Notes under the pieces: model-generated
The model's input: the letters and a program-made list of their open reading frames with translations, nothing else
Databases searched by the model: none
What the model was told of the DNA's origin: nothing
Translations under genes and position numbers: made by a program
Shown here: one piece after another, positions 1 to 7,944 of the stretch
Numbering within the stretch: the stretch's first letter is position 1
Layout of the letters: every line of letters starts with the position of its first letter
From: a virus
Lineage: Duplodnaviria; Heunggongvirae; Uroviricota; Caudoviricetes
Virus record (IMG/VR): IMGVR_UViG_2585427761_000003
Coordinates: 1 to 7,944 of that record
Length of the DNA stretch: 7,944 bases
Reading direction: 5' to 3' (one strand)

Positions 1-262
1 TGACAGTTTCGCGGGAGCCATCTGCAAAAATTGTGGTCACCTTGTAACTGAAGATGAGTCCTCGCAGTTTGATGACGAAATCGTTGACAATATCTTCGGT
101 GCACTCACCAGAGACTTTCTGAAGTAAAGGCGCATACCGCTTAGTTACCGCTCTGATAATTCTTACCTGTCCGGCAATGGCGCTGATATCAATATAAAGC
201 GCCATCGCTGTTTCTTTGCTGATCCCTGGATGCCTTCCATTCTGATGTTTGACTTCGCCCAC
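1..262 (-). CDS. hypothetical protein, 3'-truncated by window edge; gene immediately downstream of the repressor (moron position)
   Basis: Minus-strand frame is open from position 262 to the window edge with no stop; in-frame stop upstream at 286-284. Candidate starts: GTG 262-260 with SD-like AGAGGA (275-270) 7 nt upstream, or ATG 205-203. Translation from the ATG: MALYIDISAIAGQVRIIRAVTKRYAPLLQKVSGECTEDIVNDFVIKLRGLIFSYKVTTIFADGSRETV... Absent from the ORF track, presumably because no stop lies in the window. No family recognised. Confidence 0.5.
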   Translation of the reverse strand, partial: MGEVKHQNGRHPGISKETAMALYIDISAIAGQVRIIRAVTKRYAPLLQKVSGECTEDIVNDFVIKLRGLIFSYKVTTIFADGSRETV

Positions 263-340
263 TGAGAAATCCTCTGTTTCCCCTTAACGCCGGGGTAGCG
301 GAACTAAGACCTGTCGCACCGTTGTGCTTTGATGGAATAC

Positions 341-369
341 ATTGTTCTCTTTAGGTGAACGAAAGTCAA
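341..369 (-). promoter_or_regulatory. putative sigma70 promoter for the truncated minus-strand gene (-35 TTGACT, 17-nt spacer, -10 AACAAT)
   Basis: Minus-strand reading: TTGACT (369-364), 17 nt, AACAAT (346-341). Hexamers are identical to those of the putative rightward early promoter at 870-898. Spacer contains GTTCAC (plus-strand GTGAAC 355-360), the same half-site as the switch-region palindrome. Confidence 0.3.
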
Positions 370-383
370 CATGATGAATACGC

Positions 384-412
384 AAAAAAAAAAAAAACCG
401 CCTTGCGGCGGG
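384..412 (-). terminator. rho-independent terminator for the repressor transcript
   Basis: Plus strand shows A14 (384-397) then GC stem CCGCC (398-402), loop TTGC, GGCGG (407-411). On the minus strand this is a GC hairpin followed by a 14-U tract, 22 nt after the repressor stop (436-434). Confidence 0.8.
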
Positions 413-433
413 ATGATTCTGTAAAATAAAGAA

Positions 434-823
434 TTATTTTTGTCGTGTTATTGGGTCGACGTATTCTGAGTAAAATTCGGTCAGTTTTTGGAGTCGCATT
501 TGAAAAGCTGCCAGCATATTTCTACGTTCTACAGGTGGCAGGTTTCTGTAAACATCAAGCAGGGCCTTCTCGTCATCATCAAGCGCCTCTCTATTTGTCT
601 CTTCTTTCCCTGTCAGTAGCCAAGAAAGGGAAACGTTTGTGGCTTCTGCAATTTTGGCTGCGGAATCTTTACTGATTGTTCCTCTTTTTTTCCATGCGTT
701 GACTGATGAACGACCTACACCAGCGATACGCGCTAAATCTGAACCACTTAAATGATGCTGTTGAGAGATCGTATCTAACCTTTCTGCTAGCGGGGTGTCG
801 TATTGCTTTTTTCTCATGTCCAT
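434..823 (-). CDS. XRE-family helix-turn-helix phage repressor (CI functional analogue), 129 aa, no peptidase domain
   Basis: ORF-track ORF 434..823. HTH signature LSGSDLARIAGVGRSSVNAWKKRG near the N-terminus. Divergent from the Cro-like gene. Only 129 aa, so no room for an S24 (LexA-like) autocleavage domain. The -10 TATAAT (835-830) ends 6 nt before the ATG (823-821), suggesting a leaderless mRNA. Confidence 0.85.
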   Translation of the reverse strand: MDMRKKQYDTPLAERLDTISQQHHLSGSDLARIAGVGRSSVNAWKKRGTISKDSAAKIAEATNVSLSWLLTGKEETNREALDDDEKALLDVYRNLPPVERRNMLAAFQMRLQKLTEFYSEYVDPITRQK

Positions 824-926
824 TTGGCAATTATAACCGTTCAGTGAACACTAACAATTCCTCGAGGTGTTGACTTGTGTTCGTTTTAAGTGAACAATCG
901 TTGTGGTTAGTTGAACTGGAGGTTGT
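824..926. promoter_or_regulatory. immunity switch region: divergent back-to-back promoters and operator-like repeats
   Basis: Leftward promoter (minus strand): -35 TTGTTA (857-852), 16-nt spacer, -10 TATAAT (835-830). Rightward promoter: -35 TTGACT (870-875), 17-nt spacer, -10 AACAAT (893-898), then SD GGAGG (918-922) and ATG 927. Perfect 11-bp palindrome GTTCAgTGAAC at 839-849 lies in the leftward promoter spacer. Related sites: GTTAGTTGAAC at 906-916 (8/11 match) and AGTGAACA at 843-850 and 889-896. Confidence 0.6.
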
Positions 927-1202
927 ATGACAGCATTGGACAAAGCAATAAAGATTGCTGGTGGTATTCGTCCGCTAGGGCGTGCAATAGGGGCTTGGCC
1001 ATCTCAAATACACAAATGGGCAAATGAATACAATGGTCGAGTGCCGACGGGAGAACGGGTTCGTCAAATTTATATTGCAACTGGGGTTACTCCTCATGAA
1101 TTGCGACCAGATTTATACCCGAATCCAACTGACGGGTTGCCTGCTGGAGATAAGGCTAACACACCAAATACACCGGAGTTGATTCATGAAAATCAAGCAT
1201 GA
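927..1202 (+). CDS. Cro-like DNA-binding protein, YdaS family
   Basis: ORF-track ORF. First rightward gene, divergent from the repressor. Motifs A-x-x-I-A-G-G...LGRAIG...P-x-Q-I-x-K-W...TG-V-x-P-x-ELRPD match my recollection of the YdaS/Cro-like family of Rac-type prophages. Good SD GGAGG 4 nt before the ATG. Confidence 0.8.
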   Translation: MTALDKAIKIAGGIRPLGRAIGAWPSQIHKWANEYNGRVPTGERVRQIYIATGVTPHELRPDLYPNPTDGLPAGDKANTPNTPELIHENQA

Positions 1203-1611
1203 ACACATCCGCATGGCGATGAATGCCTGGGCGCGTCCTGATGGCGAAAAAGTTCCAGCAGCTGGAATAACCCAGGCTTATTTTGAGTTGGGTATGACGT
1301 TTCCTGAACTGTATGACGACAGCCATCCGGAAGCCCTGGCTCGCAATACACAGAAAATTTTCCGCTGGGTAGAGAAAGACACCCCTGATGCAGTTGAAAA
1401 AATTCAGGCGTTGTTACCAGCGATCGAAAAGGCAATGCCACCTTTGCTGGTGGCCAGAATGCGCAGCCACAGTTCAGCTTATTTTCGGGAGCTGGTGGAG
1501 ACGCGGGAGCGACTGGTGAGAGACGCTGATGATTTTGTCGCAGTGGCAATCGCCGGTTTCAATCAGATGAACCGTGGTGGCCCGGCAGGAAATGCTGTGG
1601 CAGTACATTGA
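1186..1611 (+). CDS. YdaT-family protein (annotated historically as toxin YdaT; CII-position regulator)
   Basis: ORF-track ORF. N-terminus MKIKHEHI, internal KIQALLPAI and C-terminal AVAVH match my recollection of E. coli Rac YdaT. Overlaps the Cro-like gene by 17 nt; SD GGAG 7 nt upstream of ATG 1186. Confidence 0.75.
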   Translation: MKIKHEHIRMAMNAWARPDGEKVPAAGITQAYFELGMTFPELYDDSHPEALARNTQKIFRWVEKDTPDAVEKIQALLPAIEKAMPPLLVARMRSHSSAYFRELVETRERLVRDADDFVAVAIAGFNQMNRGGPAGNAVAVH

Positions 1612-1682
1612 CTGACAATAGCCATATCGAATCGCTTCCGGCAACTCGTGAGTAAAATGATTCGGTATCAGAAGAGGTGAGT

Positions 1683-2753
1683 ATGGCTAACGCCTGGCTC
1701 AGATTATGGCATGACATGCCAAATGACCCTAAGTGGCGAACAATTGCCAGGGTGTCAGGGCAGCCAATTGCAACAGTGATGGCAGTGTATATCCACCTCC
1801 TGGTGAGCGCGTCACGAAATGTCACGCGAGGTCACATTGATGTCACGACAGAAGATTTGGCAAGTGCGCTCGACGTGACAGAAGAGGTAATTGATTCAAT
1901 TTTGCAGACGATGCAGGGGCGGGTACTTGATGGTGATTTAATCACTGGATGGGAAAAACGCCAGGTGCTGAAAGAGGACAACGGCAATATTTCGCAAACC
2001 GCAAAATCTCCTGCAGAGCGCAAGAGGGCGCAGCGAGAGAGGGAAAGAAAGCGGGAACAAAATGGCGATTGTCACGGCGCGTCACGAAATGTCACGCACA
2101 TGTCACGACGAGTCACGACAGATAAAGATACAGATAAAGATACAGATCAAGAAGATCAAAACACTATGGTCCATGGCGTAAAAAACGCCACGAACCAGGC
2201 AGGGGATGTTCAGACCGTCAATCCTGGTCAGCCAGCAGGCACGACACCGGAAGCCGATTCAGCGTATGCGCTGAAAGCCGATTCGGGCGCTGTGCAGCAG
2301 GTGATGACCGCAAGGCCGGAGCAATCACACCAACTGCAGCAGCCTGAAGCCGATTCCGCCATTCAGCGGGAAGCCGATCGGGTAGTCCCGGAAAGCACCG
2401 GGCAGTCTGTGGGACGAGTGGATTATCCGGATGTGTTCGAACAGGTCTGGCGGGAATACCCGTTGCGTGCCGGGGCAAACCCGAAGAAATCCGCTTTCAG
2501 TGCCTGGAAGGCCAGATTGCGCGAGGGGGTGCCACCAGAGACCATGCTGGATGGTGTGAGGCGTTACGCGAGATACCTGGCGGCGACCGGGAAAGCGGGA
2601 ACGGAATTTGTTCAGCGAGCGACGACGTTTTTTGGGCCGGACCGGAATTTTGAAAACCCCTGGTTGCTCCCGGTAAGCGGCACGAACAACCAGCGTTGTG
2701 TGAATCATATTTCTGAACCGGATACCGAAATTCCGCCGGGATTCAGGGGGTGA
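1683..2753 (+). CDS. phage replication initiation protein (lambda O functional analogue; YdaU-like) containing the putative origin iterons
   Basis: ORF-track ORF 1677..2753 begins at GTG 1677; ATG 1683 with SD AAGAGG (1672-1677) is the more likely start. Immediately precedes the DnaC-like gene with 6-nt spacing. Gene body holds two iteron arrays (see repeat features). The assignment rests on gene order, iterons and a recalled resemblance of the C-terminal region (YPDVFEQVWREYP...FFGPDRNFENPW) to YdaU-type replication proteins. Confidence 0.7.
   Translation: MANAWLRLWHDMPNDPKWRTIARVSGQPIATVMAVYIHLLVSASRNVTRGHIDVTTEDLASALDVTEEVIDSILQTMQGRVLDGDLITGWEKRQVLKEDNGNISQTAKSPAERKRAQRERERKREQNGDCHGASRNVTHMSRRVTTDKDTDKDTDQEDQNTMVHGVKNATNQAGDVQTVNPGQPAGTTPEADSAYALKADSGAVQQVMTARPEQSHQLQQPEADSAIQREADRVVPESTGQSVGRVDYPDVFEQVWREYPLRAGANPKKSAFSAWKARLREGVPPETMLDGVRRYARYLAATGKAGTEFVQRATTFFGPDRNFENPWLLPVSGTNNQRCVNHISEPDTEIPPGFRG
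1807..1879 (+). repeat. iteron array 1: four direct GTCAC(G/A) repeats at about 10-bp phasing plus one inverted copy
   Basis: GTCACG at 1811, 1821 and 1842; GTCACA at 1831 (spacing 10, 10, 11 bp); inverted CGTGAC at 1874-1879. The 21-mer GCGCGTCACGAAATGTCACGC (1807-1827) recurs exactly at 2077-2097. Confidence 0.65.
2071..2160 (+). repeat. iteron array 2 (five direct GTCACG repeats) followed by an A+T-rich tandem repeat; candidate origin core
   Basis: GTCACG at 2071, 2081, 2091, 2102, 2112 (spacing 10, 10, 11, 10 bp). Directly followed by GATAAAGATACA x2 and GATCAAGAA/GATCAAAAC (2121-2160), which is A+T-rich, holds two GATC sites and encodes DKDTDKDTDQEDQ. Confidence 0.6.
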
Positions 2754-2759
2754 TGTGGC

Positions 2760-3506
2760 ATGAAAAACATTGCGGCAGCCGGGGTTCTTGAACGTATTCG
2801 CAGACTTGCACCACAGGCGTCGGTTCCACCGTACCGGACGGTGGAGGAGTGGCGGGAATGGCAACTTGCTGAAGGACGAAAACGCAGCGAGGAGATTAAC
2901 CGCCAGAATCACCAGTTGCGGGTGGAAAAAATCCTGAATCGTTCGGGCATCCAGCCTCTGCACAGCAAATGCTCGTTTGCGAATTATCAGGTGCAGAACG
3001 ACGGGCAAAAATACGCGCTGAGCCAGGCCAAATCCATAGCTGACGAACTGATGACCGGGTGCACGAATTTTGTGTTCAGCGGTAAGCCGGGTACCGGAAA
3101 GAATCATCTGGCAGCAGCCATTGGCAACCATCTTCTGGCGAAAGGTCGCAGCGTGATTGTGGTGACGGTGGCGGATGTGATGCTGGCGTTACACGGCAAC
3201 TACGACAACAAAAACTCGGGCGAAAAGTTTTTGCAGGGGTTGTGTGAAGTTGACCTGCTTATCCTGGATGAAATCGGTATGCAGCGGGATACGCGTAACG
3301 AACAGGTCACACTGAACCAGATAGTCGATCGCAGAACGGCCTCGATGCACAGCGTCGGGATGCTGACGAACCTGAACCATGCGGCGATGAATACGCTGCT
3401 TGGTGAGCGCGTGATGGACCGCATGACCATGAACGGTGGTCGCTGGGTGAATTTTAACTGGGAGAGCTGGCGTTCAAATGTCAGTCATTTAAGGGTTGCG
3501 AAGTAA
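2760..3506 (+). CDS. DnaC-like replicative helicase loader (phage P/YdaV analogue), AAA+ ATPase
   Basis: ORF-track ORF. Walker A FSGKPGTGKNHLAAAIG, Walker B DLLILDEIG, and long stretches matching E. coli DnaC as I recall it (NRSGIQPLH, NQIVDRR, GMLTN, LLGERVMDRM, NFNWESWRS). Starts 6 nt after the initiator stop. Confidence 0.95.
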   Translation: MKNIAAAGVLERIRRLAPQASVPPYRTVEEWREWQLAEGRKRSEEINRQNHQLRVEKILNRSGIQPLHSKCSFANYQVQNDGQKYALSQAKSIADELMTGCTNFVFSGKPGTGKNHLAAAIGNHLLAKGRSVIVVTVADVMLALHGNYDNKNSGEKFLQGLCEVDLLILDEIGMQRDTRNEQVTLNQIVDRRTASMHSVGMLTNLNHAAMNTLLGERVMDRMTMNGGRWVNFNWESWRSNVSHLRVAK

Positions 3507-3520
3507 TTTCAGGAGGACTC

Positions 3521-3913
3521 ATGGCAAGCGTTTTTACACCTGAACAGCGGGAAGAACTGAAGGCACGAATTATCGGGCTGGTACACAGGAACAAACGCAT
3601 GACGATGTCGCAACTGGAGAGGGCAACGGGGGCGGGCTGGCATACGGTCAGACGTTGTCTTGTGGATGTGGTTGCTTGTGGTGATTTGTACATATCCGGT
3701 AAATACGGTGTTTTTGTATCAGAACAGGCGTATCAGGCGTGGTGTAAAACTCCGAAGAAAGCTGCCCCGGCACTGGTCCGGAAGTTACCTGATGGTGAAA
3801 TCCGTCGCTACGACAGAGACATGAACATAATTTGCCGGGAATGCCGTAACAGCGAATCAATGCAACGTGTACTGGCGTTCTATCGGGGTAATTTTCAGGA
3901 GGTGATGGAGTGA
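3521..3913 (+). CDS. hypothetical protein (130 aa)
   Basis: ORF-track ORF. Strong SD AGGAGG (3511-3516) 4 nt before the ATG. The N-terminal region (ELKARIIGLVHRNKRMTMSQLERATGAGWHTVRRCL) looks like a winged-helix segment. Family not recognised with confidence. Confidence 0.7.
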   Translation: MASVFTPEQREELKARIIGLVHRNKRMTMSQLERATGAGWHTVRRCLVDVVACGDLYISGKYGVFVSEQAYQAWCKTPKKAAPALVRKLPDGEIRRYDRDMNIICRECRNSESMQRVLAFYRGNFQEVME

Positions 3914-4209
3914 GGGTGAGGGTTTATATCGCCGGTCCGATGACCGGGTATAAAAATTTCAACCGTGAGGCGTTCCACAAGGCGGAAGAGGAACTGAAAC
4001 GGGAAGGGCATACAGTCTTAAACCCGGCAGTACTTCCGGACGGGCTGACACAGCCGCACTACATGGATATTTGCATGTCAATGATACGCTGCGTGGATGC
4101 GATTTACATGCTGAAAGGCTGGCAGCGGTCGGCAGGCGCTAAGGCAGAACTGGCACTGGCGGAGAAGCTGGGGCATGCAGTTATTTTCCAGGAGGCAAAC
4201 AGTGAGTAA
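3910..4209 (+). CDS. DUF4406-like protein (nucleoside 2-deoxyribosyltransferase-like fold), 99 aa
   Basis: ORF-track ORF. GTG start overlaps the upstream stop (GTGA); SD AGGAGG (3897-3902) with 7-nt spacing. N-terminal VYIAGPMTG motif, then NP-x-x-LP and W-x-RS-x-GA-x-AE-x-A-x-A-x-K-x-G-x-V, matching my recollection of the DUF4406 / NDT-like family. Confidence 0.7.
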   Translation: MRVRVYIAGPMTGYKNFNREAFHKAEEELKREGHTVLNPAVLPDGLTQPHYMDICMSMIRCVDAIYMLKGWQRSAGAKAELALAEKLGHAVIFQEANSE

Positions 4210-4666
4210 CCAATGGCGACCAGATATTTGCCCAATAACCGGACGTGCATTTTTCATGTGGATTGAGCATCCGAAATTGGGAAATGTACCGACGTATGGT
4301 GGCCCATTAGACAGTTACACCATTCCAACAAAGGACAGCGATGGTGAGTTTTCGTGTGAGCGTTACGATCATGATTTCGGTGGCTGGGTAGAAAGCGAAT
4401 GTCTAGGGTTATATCTGATTGATGATGAAGAACAATGCAGAGTCTACGAACTCGAGGAGCGCGTTAAAGAGCTGGAAGCGCGGGAAGTTCATTTACCGAC
4501 TCGCTACGGCCTTCGATATGGACATCCGATAAATGCTGATGAGCGCCACGTCATGATACCTAAAGAAAATGGCTGCTGGATTTATCTGGCTGATTTAGAG
4601 CACGTACTACGTGTTGCTGGTATTCGCATCAAAGGAGAGGAGCATGGAAATAAAACCAGAAGATGA
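4202..4666 (+). CDS. hypothetical protein (about 154 aa from GTG 4202; 163 aa if ATG 4175 is used)
   Basis: ORF-track ORF 4175..4666. I prefer GTG 4202 because of the strong SD GGAGG (4191-4195) with 6-nt spacing and a minimal 8-nt overlap with the upstream stop; ATG 4175 has a weak SD and a 35-nt overlap. Acidic, Cys-containing; family not recognised. Confidence 0.6.
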   Translation: MSNQWRPDICPITGRAFFMWIEHPKLGNVPTYGGPLDSYTIPTKDSDGEFSCERYDHDFGGWVESECLGLYLIDDEEQCRVYELEERVKELEAREVHLPTRYGLRYGHPINADERHVMIPKENGCWIYLADLEHVLRVAGIRIKGEEHGNKTRR

Positions 4667-5000
4667 GTTAAGTAATATTGTTTTATTTCCGGTAAAAGAG
4701 GATGACCCACGTAATCAGGTTAATTTTCTTTATGAGCCATCGGAAAGACCATATTGTCATCACGCCTCTGTCCGGGTTGACGAAAAAGAGCGTCAGGTCC
4801 GTTGTAAAATCTGCGGTGCAGTTGTGGAGCCGTTTGACTGGATGCTCTCTGTGGCGAAAAGAGAAACCAGACTGGCAGATGATGTAAGGCTATTGCGCCA
4901 GGAGGAACAGGAAAGGCGGAAAAATATAGAAAAGTTAATTCAGATTGAACGTAACGCGAAAGCGCGGATACGCAGGGCGACAAAATCCAGAACTGAATAA
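4644..5000 (+). CDS. hypothetical protein with Cys/His cluster and basic coiled-coil-like C-terminus (118 aa)
   Basis: ORF-track ORF 4611..5000; likely start is ATG 4644, preceded by AAAGGAGAGG (4631-4640). C-x-H-H ... C-K-I-C arrangement (PYCHHASVRVDEKERQVRCKICG) suggests a zinc-ribbon-like element. C-terminal 45 aa are rich in R/K/E/Q. Confidence 0.65.
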   Translation: MEIKPEDELSNIVLFPVKEDDPRNQVNFLYEPSERPYCHHASVRVDEKERQVRCKICGAVVEPFDWMLSVAKRETRLADDVRLLRQEEQERRKNIEKLIQIERNAKARIRRATKSRTE

Positions 5001-5095
5001 ATAAATTTAGTGCTGTAAATAAAAATTTAATCCTTAACCGGAGGGATTTCTGCACCCTCAAAACATCAGGAGGCCGCCTGAAAGGGCGGTAAGAA

Positions 5096-5314
5096 ATGAC
5101 TACATTATTCAGAAAAGAATATCCGAGAAAAAGTAGAGCGACAGAATTTTTGTTTCTCATTATATTTATCGTGTTGATGATACCGATACCCCCGCTATTA
5201 CTGGTCTGGTTTATCGTGAAAATAATTGAGCCAGTTATTGAATTGTATAACGACGTGGTGTGGGCGTCGTTCAGCACACTGCACAATAAAATTAATCCGT
5301 ATAAGGAAAGCTGA
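5096..5314 (+). CDS. small predicted membrane protein (72 aa) in an AT-rich insert
   Basis: ORF-track ORF. Hydrophobic core FLFLIIFIVLMIPIPPLLLVWFIVKII is consistent with one transmembrane helix. Stop (5312-5314) is 1 nt before the HNH start codon. SD is weak (AGGGCGG, 5083-5089), so confidence is moderate. Confidence 0.4.
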   Translation: MTTLFRKEYPRKSRATEFLFLIIFIVLMIPIPPLLLVWFIVKIIEPVIELYNDVVWASFSTLHNKINPYKES

Positions 5315-5315
5315 T

Positions 5316-5681
5316 ATGGCACTGACGAAAAAACAACGTGCAGAGCTGCGCATGAAGTTCGGCGGTCGCTGTGCTTATTGCGGCTGCGAACTTGGCGAAA
5401 AGTGGCATGCAGACCATGTAAAACCGGTCATTCGTTTTGATGGAAATATGCTTCACCAGGAACGTGACGATATATCCAATATGGTTCCGGCATGCCACCC
5501 ATGCAATCTGCACAAGCATTGCAGTAGTCTGGAAGATTATCGGCGAATTATCAGTGATGGTCGTCGTGAATTCCTTGCGTCCGGGAAAGGCAAAGCGCTG
5601 GTTCGTATGGGATTGGTTGAAATGAAATCTGACCCAGTTGTGTTCTGGTTTGAAAAATATCAAGAAGGGGCTACGGCATGA
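5316..5681 (+). CDS. HNH endonuclease (121 aa)
   Basis: ORF-track ORF 5226..5681 trimmed to ATG 5316, which has SD AAGGAAAG (5303-5310); the upstream extension is Cys/Trp-rich and unprotein-like. Classic HNH zinc-finger nuclease pattern: C-A-Y-C-G ... H-A-D-H-V-K-P ... [13 protein letters not shown]. Confidence 0.85.
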
Positions 5682-6022
5682 CGACTTTTACCAGAGAGCA
5701 GTTAATAGCTCACGCAGAGGAGACTATTGAAGCACAGAGACTGTGCATACCGGGCACAATCGACCATGACATCATCCGCACATATAAGATGGATATTGCT
5801 GTTCTGGAAATCGCACTGGTATCGCTGGCAGCAGAGCCAGCCGGTAAATTGCATGAATACAAACCAGTGGGATATCAGCGTCTGGTCGATGAGTTAACCA
5901 TGCTGGTAAAGCAGTTAACCTGGCAACTGAGGAAAGCGAAGCCAGACTGCAAATTACCGGATAAGGCGATGAGTTATCTGGAGCGGAACGGACTGATAAG
6001 CGTGGAGGATATTTTACGATGA
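5678..6022 (+). CDS. hypothetical protein (114 aa)
   Basis: ORF-track ORF. ATGA start/stop overlap with the HNH gene; SD-like AGGGG 7 nt upstream. No family recognised. Confidence 0.7.
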
Positions 6023-6102
6023 CCTGGCCTGAAGCATTCACAACGGTAGGAATTGCGATGGCGGTGGCGCTGGTGGTGTATTCGATTTGCCGCTGGGGAT
6101 AA
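6019..6102 (+). CDS. putative 27-aa hydrophobic peptide, translationally coupled to the upstream gene
   Basis: ATG 6019-6021 overlaps the upstream stop TGA (6020-6022). Encodes [27 protein letters not shown], stop TAA 6100-6102. One potential membrane helix. Last ORF before the terminator. Below the size cutoff of the ORF track, so support is purely positional and compositional. Confidence 0.3.
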
Positions 6103-6109
6103 ATCGCCG

Positions 6110-6150
6110 AAAAAAGATCCCGACATAAACATGAGCCGGGATCTTTGATT
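6110..6150. terminator. bidirectional rho-independent terminator between convergent operons
   Basis: 10-bp perfect stem AAAGATCCCG (6113-6122) / CGGGATCTTT (6137-6146) with a 14-nt loop. On the minus strand the hairpin is followed by TTTTTT; on the plus strand by TTTGATTTAT. Lies between the end of the rightward operon (6102) and the end of parE (6228). Confidence 0.7.
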
Positions 6151-6227
6151 TATATAGCCTACGAATCCGCCAGTAAGAGAGGGGGGCGGACGGTTAATTC
6201 TAACACCGGAATGATGTGGGTAAAAGT

Positions 6228-6527
6228 TTATAAGAAATCGGTTTCATAACTTTGCCCACCATGATAGATACCGACAATAAAGACTTTTCTGCTATCAACG
6301 GCAAAAGCAATAATCGTTCTGTGGCGGAAATGAGTTACCCGCATCCCCTGGCGAATATCATCGCGTTTATTGCCCCGATGCGGGAATGTAGAAAACCCAT
6401 CAAGATAATCAAGAAGCGCATTGGCATAATTGTCAGCAATGACGTTCCCTGCTTTCTCCGTTATATACCTGTGCAGGTTGATTATTTGTTGTTCGGCCTC
6501 AGGAGTAATGATGACTTCATATGTCAT
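6228..6527 (-). CDS. parE: ParE/RelE-superfamily type II toxin (99 aa)
   Basis: ORF-track ORF. Starts 5 nt after the stop of a ParD-like RHH antitoxin gene on the same strand. Size and sequence (MTYEVIITPEAEQQI...RVTHFRHRTIIAFAVDSRKVFIVGIYHGGQ) fit the ParE/RelE fold pattern. Confidence 0.85.
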   Translation of the reverse strand: MTYEVIITPEAEQQIINLHRYITEKAGNVIADNYANALLDYLDGFSTFPHRGNKRDDIRQGMRVTHFRHRTIIAFAVDSRKVFIVGIYHGGQSYETDFL

Positions 6528-6532
6528 GCAGA

Positions 6533-6790
6533 TTACTTCCCGGATCGAATCGCGGCGCGAACCTGTGAAATGGAGCGTCCGTTGTTTGGGTTTTCGCGGA
6601 TAGAATCAAGAGAGGGGGCGGCTGAATGCGTTAACCACGCTTCGATTGCTTTATCGCGCTCATTCAGTGCGCGAAGCCCTTCACGAATGACCTCGCTTTC
6701 TGAAGCATAGGCACCGGAAGCCACACGGGCGCGCACCATGTCAGCCATTTCGTTAGTTAATGTAATGCTGAATTGTTGGGTTGTACGCAT
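6533..6790 (-). CDS. parD: ParD-family (ribbon-helix-helix) antitoxin, 85 aa
   Basis: ORF-track ORF 6533..6853 trimmed to ATG 6790-6788, which has SD GAGG with 6-nt spacing; the 21-aa upstream extension is Ser/Gly-rich and unprotein-like. MRTTQQFSITLTNEMADMVRARVASGAYASESEVIREGLRALNERDKAIEAWL matches the ParD pattern (N-terminal beta-strand, G-x-Y-x-S-x-SEV-R-x-x-LR-x-L). Confidence 0.85.
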   Translation of the reverse strand: MRTTQQFSITLTNEMADMVRARVASGAYASESEVIREGLRALNERDKAIEAWLTHSAAPSLDSIRENPNNGRSISQVRAAIRSGK

Positions 6791-6925
6791 GGTAAACCTC
6801 ACGGAGTAGGATAGAACACCATTCGATGATAGCACGTTGCCTGTTGACGACAACAGAAATCAGAGACAATATTGCCGCACGCCAGCTTGAACAACTGGCA
6901 CCTGCTGCGCCAGCAGAGAAAACCG
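6791..6925. promoter_or_regulatory. putative parDE promoter/operator and divergent rightward promoter
   Basis: Minus strand: -35 TTGTCG (6853-6848), 16-nt spacer, -10 TATCAT (6831-6826). Inverted repeat CTGTTG-acga-CAACAG (6841-6856) overlaps this -35 and also a plus-strand TTGACG (6844-6849). A palindrome over the promoter fits RHH antitoxin autoregulation. Hexamer assignments are weak. Confidence 0.35.
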
Positions 6926-7198
6926 ATGGCGCACAATACCAAACATCACAATTCTGATATCGCCCCTGCCAGCAGGCAAGGGCGGTGTTCTCACACATTC
7001 AAATATGACTGGTATCAGCACGATCCCTGCACTGAAGAACAGGCCGAATGGCTGATTCATAACTACCGCAGACGTGGGTATGAGTTTAAGAAAGCCCTTA
7101 GCCTCGACTACCGTCACTGGATAATCTACGTCAGGCTCCTTTATTCCGAACGCCCGCCGCGTCCGTCCCGCACATTCCAGCAACGCATCTGGAGGTAA
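6926..7198 (+). CDS. hypothetical protein (90 aa from ATG 6926; 108 aa if TTG 6872 is used)
   Basis: ORF-track ORF 6872..7198 begins at a TTG. ATG 6926 keeps the start outside the putative divergent promoter region. Rich in aromatic and basic residues, Cys/His at the N-terminus (CSHTFKYDWYQHDPC). Stop is 1 nt before the GTG start of the DUF968-like gene. No family recognised. Confidence 0.45.
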   Translation: MAHNTKHHNSDIAPASRQGRCSHTFKYDWYQHDPCTEEQAEWLIHNYRRRGYEFKKALSLDYRHWIIYVRLLYSERPPRPSRTFQQRIWR

Positions 7199-7199
7199 C

Positions 7200-7944
7200 G
7201 TGCGGGTATTACTTCGACCTGTTCTGGTACCGGAACTCGGGCTGGTGATCGTTAAGCCGGGCCGTGAATCCATGCCGGTATTCCACAATACCCGGGTACT
7301 GGTGGAGCCGGAACCGAAAAGCATGCGTAATCTGCCGTCCGGGGTTGTTCCTGCCGTTCGCCAGCCGCTAGTGGAAGACAAAACATTGCTGCCGTTTTTC
7401 AGTAACGCACGGGTGATTCGTGCTGCTGGTGGTGCTGGTGCATTGTCTGACTGGCTGTTGCGCCATATTAAATCCTGCCAGTGGCCACACGGCGATTATC
7501 ATCACAGCGAAACCGTCATTCACCGTTATGGTACCGGCGCAATGGTGTTGTGCTGGCACTGCGACAACCAGCTGCGCGACCAGACATCCGAATCACTCGG
7601 GCAGCTTGCTCAACAAAATCTGACAGCCTGGATGATTGACGTCATCGGTCACGCAATAAGCGGTACGCAGGAGCGTGAATTATCTCTGGCTGAATTATCC
7701 TGGTGGGCGGTCCGCAATCAGGTGGCGGACGCGCTACCGGAAGCGGTATTACGTCGTTCGCTGGGGTTGCGTGCGGAAAAAATCCGCTCAATGTACCGTG
7801 AAAGCGACATCGTGCCGGGAGAGCAGACCGCCACCAGCATACTGAAACAGCGCACAAAAAATCTTGCGCCGCTGCCTCACGCCCACCAGCAACAGAACCC
7901 ACCACAGGAAAAGACGGTGGTCAGCATTGCCGTTGATCCTGAGT
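7200..7944 (+). CDS. DUF968-like prophage protein, 3'-truncated by window edge; possible HNH-like Cys/His motif
   Basis: Not in the ORF track. Frame opens at GTG 7200 (the first possible start after the in-frame stop at 7122-7124), SD GGAGG (7191-7195), and I translated 248 codons to the window end without a stop. Begins VRVLLRPVLVPELGLVIVKPGRESMPVFHNT, which matches my recollection of DUF968 N-termini. Contains CQWPHGDYHHSETVIHRYGTGAMVLCWHCDN. The minus-strand ORFs listed here (6860..7381, 7368..7559, 7642..7905) have low-complexity translations and are treated as antisense artefacts. Confidence 0.7.
   Translation, partial: MRVLLRPVLVPELGLVIVKPGRESMPVFHNTRVLVEPEPKSMRNLPSGVVPAVRQPLVEDKTLLPFFSNARVIRAAGGAGALSDWLLRHIKSCQWPHGDYHHSETVIHRYGTGAMVLCWHCDNQLRDQTSESLGQLAQQNLTAWMIDVIGHAISGTQERELSLAELSWWAVRNQVADALPEAVLRRSLGLRAEKIRSMYRESDIVPGEQTATSILKQRTKNLAPLPHAHQQQNPPQEKTVVSIAVDPE

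Follow-up and report, generated by a model that had tools for sequence, protein, structure and literature searches.

Gene content of the parDE cassette

The DNA analyzed here, termed the window, is the whole 7,944-nt stretch at positions 1 to 7,944 of the IMG/VR virus record IMGVR_UViG_2585427761_000003 (Caudoviricetes). It is the early-right region of a lambdoid prophage and carries on its minus strand two small genes, parD and parE (together parDE), predicted to encode an antitoxin and a toxin. From position 5020 onward the window was 99.35% identical to a prophage of Escherichia coli O26:H11 strain 11368. Alignment with phage vB_EcoS-689R5 (689R5) gave matches to the window up to position 6103 and again from 6876; in place of window 6104-6875 this phage carries 1148 bp with a hok gene (positions 3473-4620 of locus L003). 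Because homology stops at 6103 and resumes at 6876, the cassette was taken to span about 6104-6875. It contains a hairpin, parE, parD, and two promoters, as follows.

6110-6153, no assigned strand: hairpin, probable bidirectional intrinsic terminator (from folding energy and a compensatory pair)
6228-6527, minus strand: parE, 99 aa, ParE-type toxin (from Pfam PF05016, PHROG 5232, and a fold search)
6533-6790, minus strand: parD, 85 aa, antitoxin (from TIGR02606, PF03693, and PHROG 6494)
6804-6825, no assigned strand: probable ParD operator remnant, GGAGTAGGATAGAACACCATTC on the plus strand and GAATGGTGTTCTATCCTACTCC in the parD sense
6826-6853, minus strand: predicted parDE promoter, with -35 TTGTCG (6853-6848), a 16-nt spacer, and extended -10 TGcTATCAT (6834-6826), from a consensus scan
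6841-6856, no assigned strand: palindrome CTGTTG-acga-CAACAG, read as the overlap of two divergent -35 hexamers
6844-6873, plus strand: predicted isrK-type promoter, TTGACG (6844-6849), an 18-nt spacer, and AATATT (6868-6873), facing the orf90-ydfU block

An earlier note on this DNA had described a ParD-ParE pair antisense to the rightward early genes. This is indeed the arrangement, as the minus-strand parD and parE face three plus-strand open reading frames (ORFs), namely an HNH gene, a hypothetical gene, and a 27-aa ORF that ends at 6102. The span given at that time, 6228-6925, takes in intergenic region at its end coordinate of 6925. The GC content of the cassette showed no distinguishing signal relative to its surroundings. 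On the evidence set out below, the parDE cassette is very probably a self-contained type II toxin-antitoxin phage 'moron' lying antisense in the lambdoid early-right region.

The toxin is predicted to be of the ParE type

The ParE protein was identical to WP_000220601.1 and to the O26:H11 11368 protein. It covered the full length of the Pfam ParE_toxin profile (PF05016) with an E value of 4.5e-10 and a score of 40.4 bits (cutoff 23), and it belonged to PHROG 5232 ('toxin', category moron) at 2.4e-43. No NCBIfam model matched ParE. PF05016 mixes gyrase-inhibiting ParE toxins with RelE-type mRNases, including an mRNase subcluster (PMC11980606), and so the branch to which the toxin belongs was checked by both profile and fold. 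A member of that subcluster would act not as a gyrase poison but as a ribosome-dependent mRNase like RelE; the ParE family conserves residues His-66, Arg-68, His-69, Arg-70, Tyr-88, and His-89, which could in principle be catalytic.

A family profile built from 16 homologues and searched against the PDB retrieved only ParE chains, with 6X0A at 4e-6 followed by 5CEG, 7YCS, and 8C24. No RelE, YoeB, or HigB structure was found with this profile even at E values up to 10. Comparison of ParE with K-12 RelE by hhalign gave a probability of 0.5%, that is, no similarity.

The AlphaFold model of ParE (predicted local distance difference test score 82.7) has the topology of a β-strand (residues 4-7), two long helices (9-26 and 28-46), and a three-stranded sheet (61-67, 71-78, and 81-89). 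A long two-helix N-terminal hairpin is typical of ParE. When the model was searched with Foldseek, ranks 1-23 were all ParE-family toxins with template modeling (TM) scores of 0.64-0.73, among them Mesorhizobium ParE3, PfiT, PrpT, Pseudomonas aeruginosa ParE1, O157 ParE2, Vibrio cholerae ParE2, Mycobacterium tuberculosis ParE1/2, and Caulobacter ParE1. RNase-type toxins came later in the ranking, at E values above 0.02 and TM scores of 0.33-0.56. The sequence identity of ParE to any solved ParE was only 11-24%.

The profile matches, the fold ranking, the hhalign result, the two-helix hairpin, and the CC2985/ParD-type partner antitoxin all speak against an mRNase, which we consider very unlikely. 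The toxin is predicted to belong with the ParE-type toxins and not with the RelE-type RNases.

The antitoxin and the integrity of the operon

ParD was identical to WP_001260977.1 and to the O26:H11 11368 protein. It matched TIGR02606 (1.5e-14, 53.8 bits, cutoff 46.2) and the Pfam ParD_antitoxin profile PF03693 (1.6e-7, 32.1 bits, cutoff 21) and fell in PHROG 6494 ('antitoxin', category moron). Residues 6-51 aligned with the ribbon-helix-helix (RHH) regions of the solved ParD proteins 3KXE, 7B22, 8C24, and 5CEG, and the first 53 residues, which include the β-strand RTTQQFSITL, are nearly invariant across the family. From these alignments ParD is predicted to bind DNA through an N-terminal RHH domain (about residues 1-50) and the toxin through its C-terminal tail. 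The start codon was assigned to the ATG at 6790, which has GAGG six nucleotides upstream. A 106-aa ParD ORF starting from TTG at 6853 was ruled out, since all homologues begin MRTTQQ and have a Shine-Dalgarno site.

The antitoxin gene comes first and is separated from parE by 5 nt. Shine-Dalgarno sites are present for both genes, and the Shine-Dalgarno region is conserved. For comparison, 17 distant parDE loci were gathered (from Paraburkholderia, Polynucleobacter, Desulfovibrio, Pantoea, Winslowiella, Scandinavium, Buttiauxella, Dyella, a Bordetella metagenome-assembled genome, and others), and parD precedes parE in every one with a readable parD. The assignment to the ParD/ParE family made in the earlier note is thereby upheld by the profiles, the fold, and a gene order kept in the 17 distant loci. 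Relative to a 94% identical E. coli variant and an 86% identical Salmonella copy, the ratio of nonsynonymous to synonymous substitution rates (dN/dS) was 0.07-0.21 for the two genes (0.11-0.19 for parE and 0.07-0.21 for parD), which indicates that both are under purifying selection. With adjacent co-directional small genes, the antitoxin first, tight spacing, and a predicted promoter of its own, parDE has the organization of an intact type II operon.

A hairpin between the cassette and the rightward genes

The hairpin consists of a stem-loop at 6115-6144 between an A6 tract (6110-6115) and TTTGATTT (6145-6152), which provide U6 on the minus-strand transcript and UUUGAUUU on the plus strand. 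Its calculated free energy is -16 kcal/mol on the plus strand and -19.7 kcal/mol on the minus strand, with z-scores of -3.7 and -3.6, respectively. One stem pair is changed from A-T to C-G, a compensatory substitution, in the 94% identical relative LR-31. A simple terminator scan of the window called no terminator; the hairpin was missed because its 13-nt loop exceeds the 8-nt limit of the scan, and it was kept as a probable terminator because of the folding and covariation evidence. It would probably end both the parDE transcripts and the rightward early transcripts. The single bidirectional terminator that had been postulated between the module and the early operon is in keeping with this prediction, as the hairpin suits both directions.

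A promoter-like site lies past the parE stop codon on the minus strand (6224-6197; TTTACC, a 16-nt spacer, and TGnTAGAAT). It points toward the hairpin and could yield an RNA of about 75 nt. Folding of the 81-nt spacer between parE and the hairpin (6147-6227) was not significant (z -0.7).

Two predicted divergent promoters and the palindrome at 6841-6856

The extended -10 motif of the predicted parDE promoter, TGnTAnnnT, is invariant in the aligned enterobacterial copies. The palindrome upstream of it has arms at 6841-6846 and 6851-6856. The consensus scan places both the parDE -35 hexamer and that of the divergent plus-strand promoter within 6841-6856, in agreement with the earlier observation that the palindrome overlaps the two.

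Such a position would suit an operator for ParD or the ParD-ParE complex, at which one bound repressor would control both the parDE and the divergent plus-strand promoters. RHH antitoxins commonly bind promoter palindromes, and divergent autoregulated par promoters exist in RK2/RP4 (cited in PMC10776004). Moreover, a 14-nt core, TGTTGACGACAACA, is unchanged between 87% identical copies in which the flanks vary. The symmetry itself is not conserved, however. A perfect palindrome is confined to the window, LR-31, and one Salmonella copy; in ArgO145 and PA8 its arms are reduced to 5 bp; and it is broken in the Yersinia, Erwinia, and Enterobacter copies and in Salmonella locus L033, despite nearly identical ParD RHH domains. 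It is absent from the distant parDE loci. The sole invariant part is GTCGTCAA (equivalent to TTGACGAC), the -35 region of the isrK-type promoter, and this half is also found in Gifsy-1 and VT2-Sakai, which have neither parDE nor the palindrome. The palindrome does not resemble TAGGAT, the half-site of the family (below), and an inverted repeat of this kind (6+6 nt, spacer up to 6 nt) is expected by chance in a 135-nt stretch with a P of about 0.17.

We therefore regard an operator at 6841-6856 as unlikely. The symmetry appears to be largely the product of the back-to-back parD -35 (TTGTCG) and isrK -35 (TTGACG), which overlap by 2 bp. The proposal in the earlier note that ParD would bind here, with 6830-6870 as the target for an electrophoretic mobility shift assay (EMSA), is not sustained, because only the isrK -35 half is kept and a better candidate lies at 6804-6825.

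A candidate ParD operator at 6804-6825

In the distant parDE loci a family-conserved operator-like site, AGTAGGATTAAATCCTACT, lies over the -10 at the same position as window 6804-6825. In 13 of the 17 it forms a near-perfect palindrome, AGTAGGATT-A/T-AATCCTACT, centered about 27 nt upstream of the parD start. By our own reading of these sequences, the left half, TAGGAT, follows a TTGnnn or CTGACA hexamer at a distance of 17 nt. At this spacing TAGGAT would be the -10 itself, so that the operator would cover the -10 and the transcription start.

The block GAATrGTGTTyWATCCTACT (6804-6825) is conserved in seven enterobacterial phage-borne lineages. In the parD sense, the right half of the window site is almost perfect and the left half is degenerate. 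Specifically, GTAGGAT at 6806-6812 is one perfect family half-site; it is the sole copy in the window and the only hit of the half-site position weight matrix in 6780-6900. The remnant at 6804-6825, just downstream of the -10, is on this basis the most likely ParD operator, rather than 6841-6856. It falls mostly outside the EMSA fragment 6830-6870.

Flanking genes and the cargo slot

Left of the cassette, the window contains a cI-like repressor gene at 434-823 on the minus strand, followed by cro-like, YdaT-like, DUF1376/O-like, and DnaC-like genes. A string of small nin-type genes closes with the HNH gene and the 114-aa hypothetical gene. The nearest neighbors on either side of the cassette are the following.

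5316-5681, plus strand: HNH gene, rightward block
5678-6022, plus strand: hypothetical gene, 114 aa, rightward block
6019-6102, plus strand: 27-aa hydrophobic ORF, the last rightward gene before the cassette and outside it
6876-7198, plus strand: leader with two hairpins and orf90, a neighbor and not part of the cassette, at which 689R5 and Qin homology resumes
6926-7198, plus strand: orf90, 90 aa, first gene of the orf90-ydfU(DUF968)-rusA-Q-position block (PHROG 1212, unknown function)

The ATG of the 27-aa ORF overlaps the stop codon of the upstream hypothetical gene (ATGA), so that the two are translationally coupled, and the ORF ends directly in front of the terminator hairpin. In some RefSeq records an additional hypothetical gene, which may be the 27-aa ORF, is annotated in the 6019-6102 stretch. 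The two hairpins of the orf90 leader are GCCAG-N9-CTGGC (6882-6899) and CTGCTG-cgc-CAGCAG (6902-6916). A consensus scan for an independent orf90 promoter in 689R5 found none, only a terminator upstream. An identification of orf90 as Rem was dropped for want of similarity to K-12 Rem; the counterpart of orf90 in the K-12 prophage Qin is unannotated DNA between rem and ydfU.

In Qin (L026 4152-5373), the DNA directly downstream of relB-relE-hokD-rem matches window 6909-7944, which comprises the orf90-like region together with ydfU, at 87% identity. As judged from these alignments, the slot preceding the orf90/ydfU/Q block is a hotspot for toxin cargo: the window has parDE there, 689R5 has hok along with other ORFs, and Qin has relBE-hokD-rem.

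A second toxin-antitoxin-like pair, a HigB toxin and a helix-turn-helix (HTH) protein, lies beside the immunity region of the O26:H11 11368 prophage (L001 1402-2066). The immunity region of the window differs from that of the O26:H11 11368 prophage at the HigB/HTH position.

Linkage of parDE to isrK and history of the plus-strand promoter

In PA8 and ArgO145, the sequence TTGACG, an 18-nt spacer, and TATATT precedes by 7 nt a match to the Rfam isrK model (53 bits, threshold 50); a C4 antisense RNA, at 70 bits, and the gene for an ORF6N antirepressor (ant) come next. The same order, with parE and parD reading left and isrK, C4, and in some cases ant reading right, was found in a Salmonella prophage, Yersinia similis, Yersinia enterocolitica, and Erwinia tracheiphila. 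Overall, six enterobacterial prophage lineages have isrK (RF01394) and C4 (RF01695) immediately beside parD and divergent from it, and an antirepressor gene usually comes next. In each isrK-type lineage the parD ATG and the 5' end of isrK are about 90 nt apart, and the isrK covariance scores in these sister loci were 53-81 bits. The positions are as follows.

isrK/C4 loci: L002 5280-5462; L004 3367-3549; L007 3462-3648; L018 3458-3643; L029 1959-2143; L031 1956-2143

A covariance search of window 5900-7300 for isrK (RF01394) at E values up to 1 gave no hit. The window lacks the isrK body, C4, and the antirepressor gene and retains the promoter and perhaps a stem like the first hairpin; its homology to the isrK-type loci ends at about 6873-6880, the isrK start site. 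The Gifsy-1 sequence TTGACA, an 18-nt spacer, and TATATT aligns column for column with the window sequence TTGACG, an 18-nt spacer, and AATATT. Across isrK-type promoters the hexamers and their spacing are kept and the spacer sequence varies. In Gifsy-1, deletion of the isrK promoter abolishes both IsrK and stationary-phase induction (PMC4825925). By alignment, the plus-strand promoter of the window is a derivative of an isrK promoter that now faces orf90-ydfU.

The first stem of the orf90 leader, ACGCCAGC...CTGGC, is similar to the 5' stem of IsrK in Gifsy-1 and VT2-Sakai, a likeness that suggests a relationship between the leader and isrK. We infer that this similarity may have guided recombination. 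The ancestral order would have been parE and parD divergent from isrK, C4, and the antirepressor gene, an arrangement still present in Stx2a phages and in prophages of Salmonella, Yersinia, and Erwinia. Recombination at about the isrK start site would then have swapped isrK-C4-ant for orf90-ydfU-rusA-Q in the lineage of the window. A literature search for a parDE-isrK linkage found no paper.

A tRNA-like sequence, GGTTCGAATCC, upstream of parD in the sister loci was considered and rejected as a tRNA; it is part of isrK. The sok antisense RNA (RF01794) occurs near the parDE-isrK-ant block in Salmonella (L007 2589-2739) and Erwinia (L029 802-971) prophages, accompanied by a hok gene in L029, and several toxin systems cluster there.

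Distribution, orphan ParD, and decayed copies

The whole module was present in about 328 of 5426 complete E. coli genomes (about 6%), in all cases on the chromosome. The window-type junction was found in 328 genomes against 42 with the isrK-type junction. Prophages of the major non-O157 Shiga toxin-producing E. coli lineages O26, O103, O111, and O45 carry the module.

Only the first five codons of parE are left in PA8-type O157 Shiga toxin 2a (Stx2a) prophages and in 45 Stx2a phage records, where a lipoprotein-like ORF of 90 aa and a HigA-like gene have taken its place. The reference copy of this type is the following.

L004 3020-3277 and 2694-2966: orphan parD locus, E. coli PA8 Stx2a prophage

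Relative to the window, residues 1-47 of the orphan ParD show 0 nonsynonymous and 8 synonymous changes. For residues 48-85, pN/pS was 0.40, compared with 0.14 for the Salmonella copy, in which parE is still present; the numbers are small. This pattern fits DNA binding that would be retained where there is no toxin to neutralize. In Y. similis Y228 (L018 about 4001-4290), parE is a frameshifted pseudogene, whereas parD, isrK, and C4 are intact.

With decayed copies in PA8-type phages and Y. similis, and with one half of its operator degenerate, the parDE pair of the window could itself be an inert remnant, no longer expressed or toxic. We consider this extremely improbable. Both ORFs are intact and their products identical to the O26:H11 11368 proteins, the whole module is spread over the E. 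coli genomes counted above, and dN/dS is low (0.07-0.21). In addition, conservation extends to the promoter, the Shine-Dalgarno sites, and the terminator, whose stem shows a compensatory change.

Probable role of the cassette

By analogy with RK2, Caulobacter ParDE1, V. cholerae ParDE2, and M. tuberculosis ParDE1, ParD dimers would bind the promoter operator and repress the operon, and, as in characterized ParDE systems, the C-terminal tail of ParD would wrap and neutralize ParE. Should the supply of ParD end, either because the DNA is lost or because transcription is off while ParD is proteolyzed, free ParE would poison DNA gyrase and the cell would arrest. On these analogies the most probable role is selfish stabilization of the cassette and the prophage, with phage exclusion as a possible extra.

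The same sequence of events would operate in an abortive-infection defense, in which an infecting phage stops host transcription, the labile ParD is lost, and the cell is killed or arrested by ParE. Prophage toxin-antitoxin modules have repeatedly been implicated in defense in reviews, the cargo slot holds hok or relBE-hokD in other phages, and PHROGs classes the pair as moron. Nevertheless, no PADLOC model matched, which gives no support for a catalogued defense role; our literature searches turned up no report of defense mediated by ParDE modules of this family; and the toxin has been lost in some lineages. Defense as the main function of the cassette is in our view improbable.

A further reading makes coupling to the induction switch the main function: ParD, by binding DNA beside the isrK-type promoter, or ParE, through supercoiling, would tune isrK-C4-antirepressor, the target in the window lineage being orf90-ydfU-rusA-Q. 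It is the linkage and the orphan ParD pattern that point to it. The divergent parDE-isrK arrangement is kept in six enterobacterial lineages at about 90 nt, the isrK promoter is needed for stationary-phase induction of Gifsy-1 (PMC4825925), and in the orphan ParD the RHH domain is unchanged while the tail is relaxed. PfiT/PfiA, a ParE-superfamily module, modulates phage production (PMC7264888). The predicted plus-strand start, however, is some 60-75 bp downstream of the operator-like block, an atypical distance for repression; the linkage may only reflect co-transfer as one recombination block; and the substitution counts are small, with a divergence that may predate the loss of parE. Coupling as the main function seems to us improbable. 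In its strongest form, parDE would be a conserved divergent partner of the isrK-C4-antirepressor switch, not a free-standing addiction module, with the isrK-type promoter rewired to orf90-ydfU-rusA and the Q-position gene in the window lineage; this we hold to be distinctly unlikely. If true, coupling would tie a toxin-antitoxin module directly to late-gene activation. The antisense orientation of parDE recurs in several phage contexts. Since parDE travels linked to isrK, these recurrent cases are not independent evidence for transcriptional interference.

Several points weigh against a functional, self-regulating toxin-antitoxin moron, the reading that we prefer. Toxicity, gyrase targeting, neutralization, and autoregulation are all inferred from analogy, and a search for experiments on this parDE module in the searchable literature found none. 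The match of the single ParE sequence to solved ParE proteins was weak (E 0.011), in a family that also includes RelE-type RNases (PMC11980606). The family operator is half preserved in the window (11 of 17 positions), and a search of the window for the full family palindrome gave no match within three mismatches; ParD may bind 6804-6825 weakly or bind elsewhere. No PADLOC model matched ParE, ParD, orf90, or the upstream hypothetical protein. Finally, as parE is frameshifted in Y. similis and lost in PA8-type phages, the toxin appears to be dispensable in those lineages.

The module is already catalogued in RefSeq and PHROGs but apparently uncharacterized, and a literature search on ParDE in Stx phages found nothing relevant. 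Its value as a further ParDE cassette is small: type II toxin-antitoxin modules are common prophage cargo, and RefSeq and PHROGs have already named this one. The comparative results shift the operator target to 6804-6825 and recast the plus-strand promoter as an isrK derivative. Should the module influence how stable or how inducible a prophage is, it would be relevant to the maintenance of Stx phages and to toxin release; the parE-less version adjoins the antirepressor locus of many O157 Stx2a phages.

Comparison with known systems

The module resembles Caulobacter ParD1-ParE1 (3KXE), V. cholerae ParD2-ParE2 (7R5A), M. tuberculosis ParDE1 (8C24), and Mesorhizobium ParDE3 (5CEG, 6X0A) in having the antitoxin gene before the toxin gene and in the sizes of the products. 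With the CC2985-type ParDE systems it shares the N-terminal RHH of ParD and the ParE fold, and the relatives of the window module carry a palindromic promoter site. The operator of V. cholerae ParD2 consists of GGTA boxes, as given in PMC10776004, from which the half-site TAGGAT of the window family differs. Unlike these chromosomal and plasmid systems, the window module, known here from sequence and model, is phage-borne and lies antisense inside a phage operon.

Two other prophage-encoded ParE-superfamily toxins are comparable. ParESO/CopASO stabilizes the excised Shewanella prophage CP4So, according to PMC8706911, and PfiT/PfiA modulates production of the Pseudomonas prophage Pf4 (PMC7264888). 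PfiT (9W3A) was the second-best structural match to the window ParE. Both systems differ from the window module in their antitoxins, which are CopA-type (CP4So) and PfiA (Pf4) and not TIGR02606 ParD RHH proteins, and in their phages, CP4So being P4-like and Pf4 filamentous, neither with an isrK neighbor. The PaaR-PaaA-ParE system of E. coli O157:H7 prophages (5CW7, 5CZF) likewise places a ParE-type toxin in prophages of enterohemorrhagic E. coli, and its ParE2 is a structural match to the window ParE (TM about 0.7). The window module differs in having two genes and in the DNA-binding domain that the ParD RHH itself supplies; no PaaA-like or PaaR-like gene was found beside the window parDE, where only parD precedes parE and there is no third gene.

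On the plus-strand side, the closest relation is the isrK-orf45-anrP locus of Gifsy-1, whose isrK promoter region aligns with the plus-strand promoter of the window. The window differs from Gifsy-1 in lacking the isrK body, C4, and the antirepressor gene, whereas in its sister phages isrK and C4 follow the promoter. Rfam groups the C4-type antisense RNA with phages P1/P7. A positional parallel is relBE-hokD of K-12 Qin. This cargo differs from parDE in its RelE mRNase, its extra hok gene, and its co-directional orientation with ydfU, and the two are unrelated in sequence; nevertheless, each is a toxin-antitoxin cargo set directly upstream of a homologous orf90-like/ydfU/Q block.

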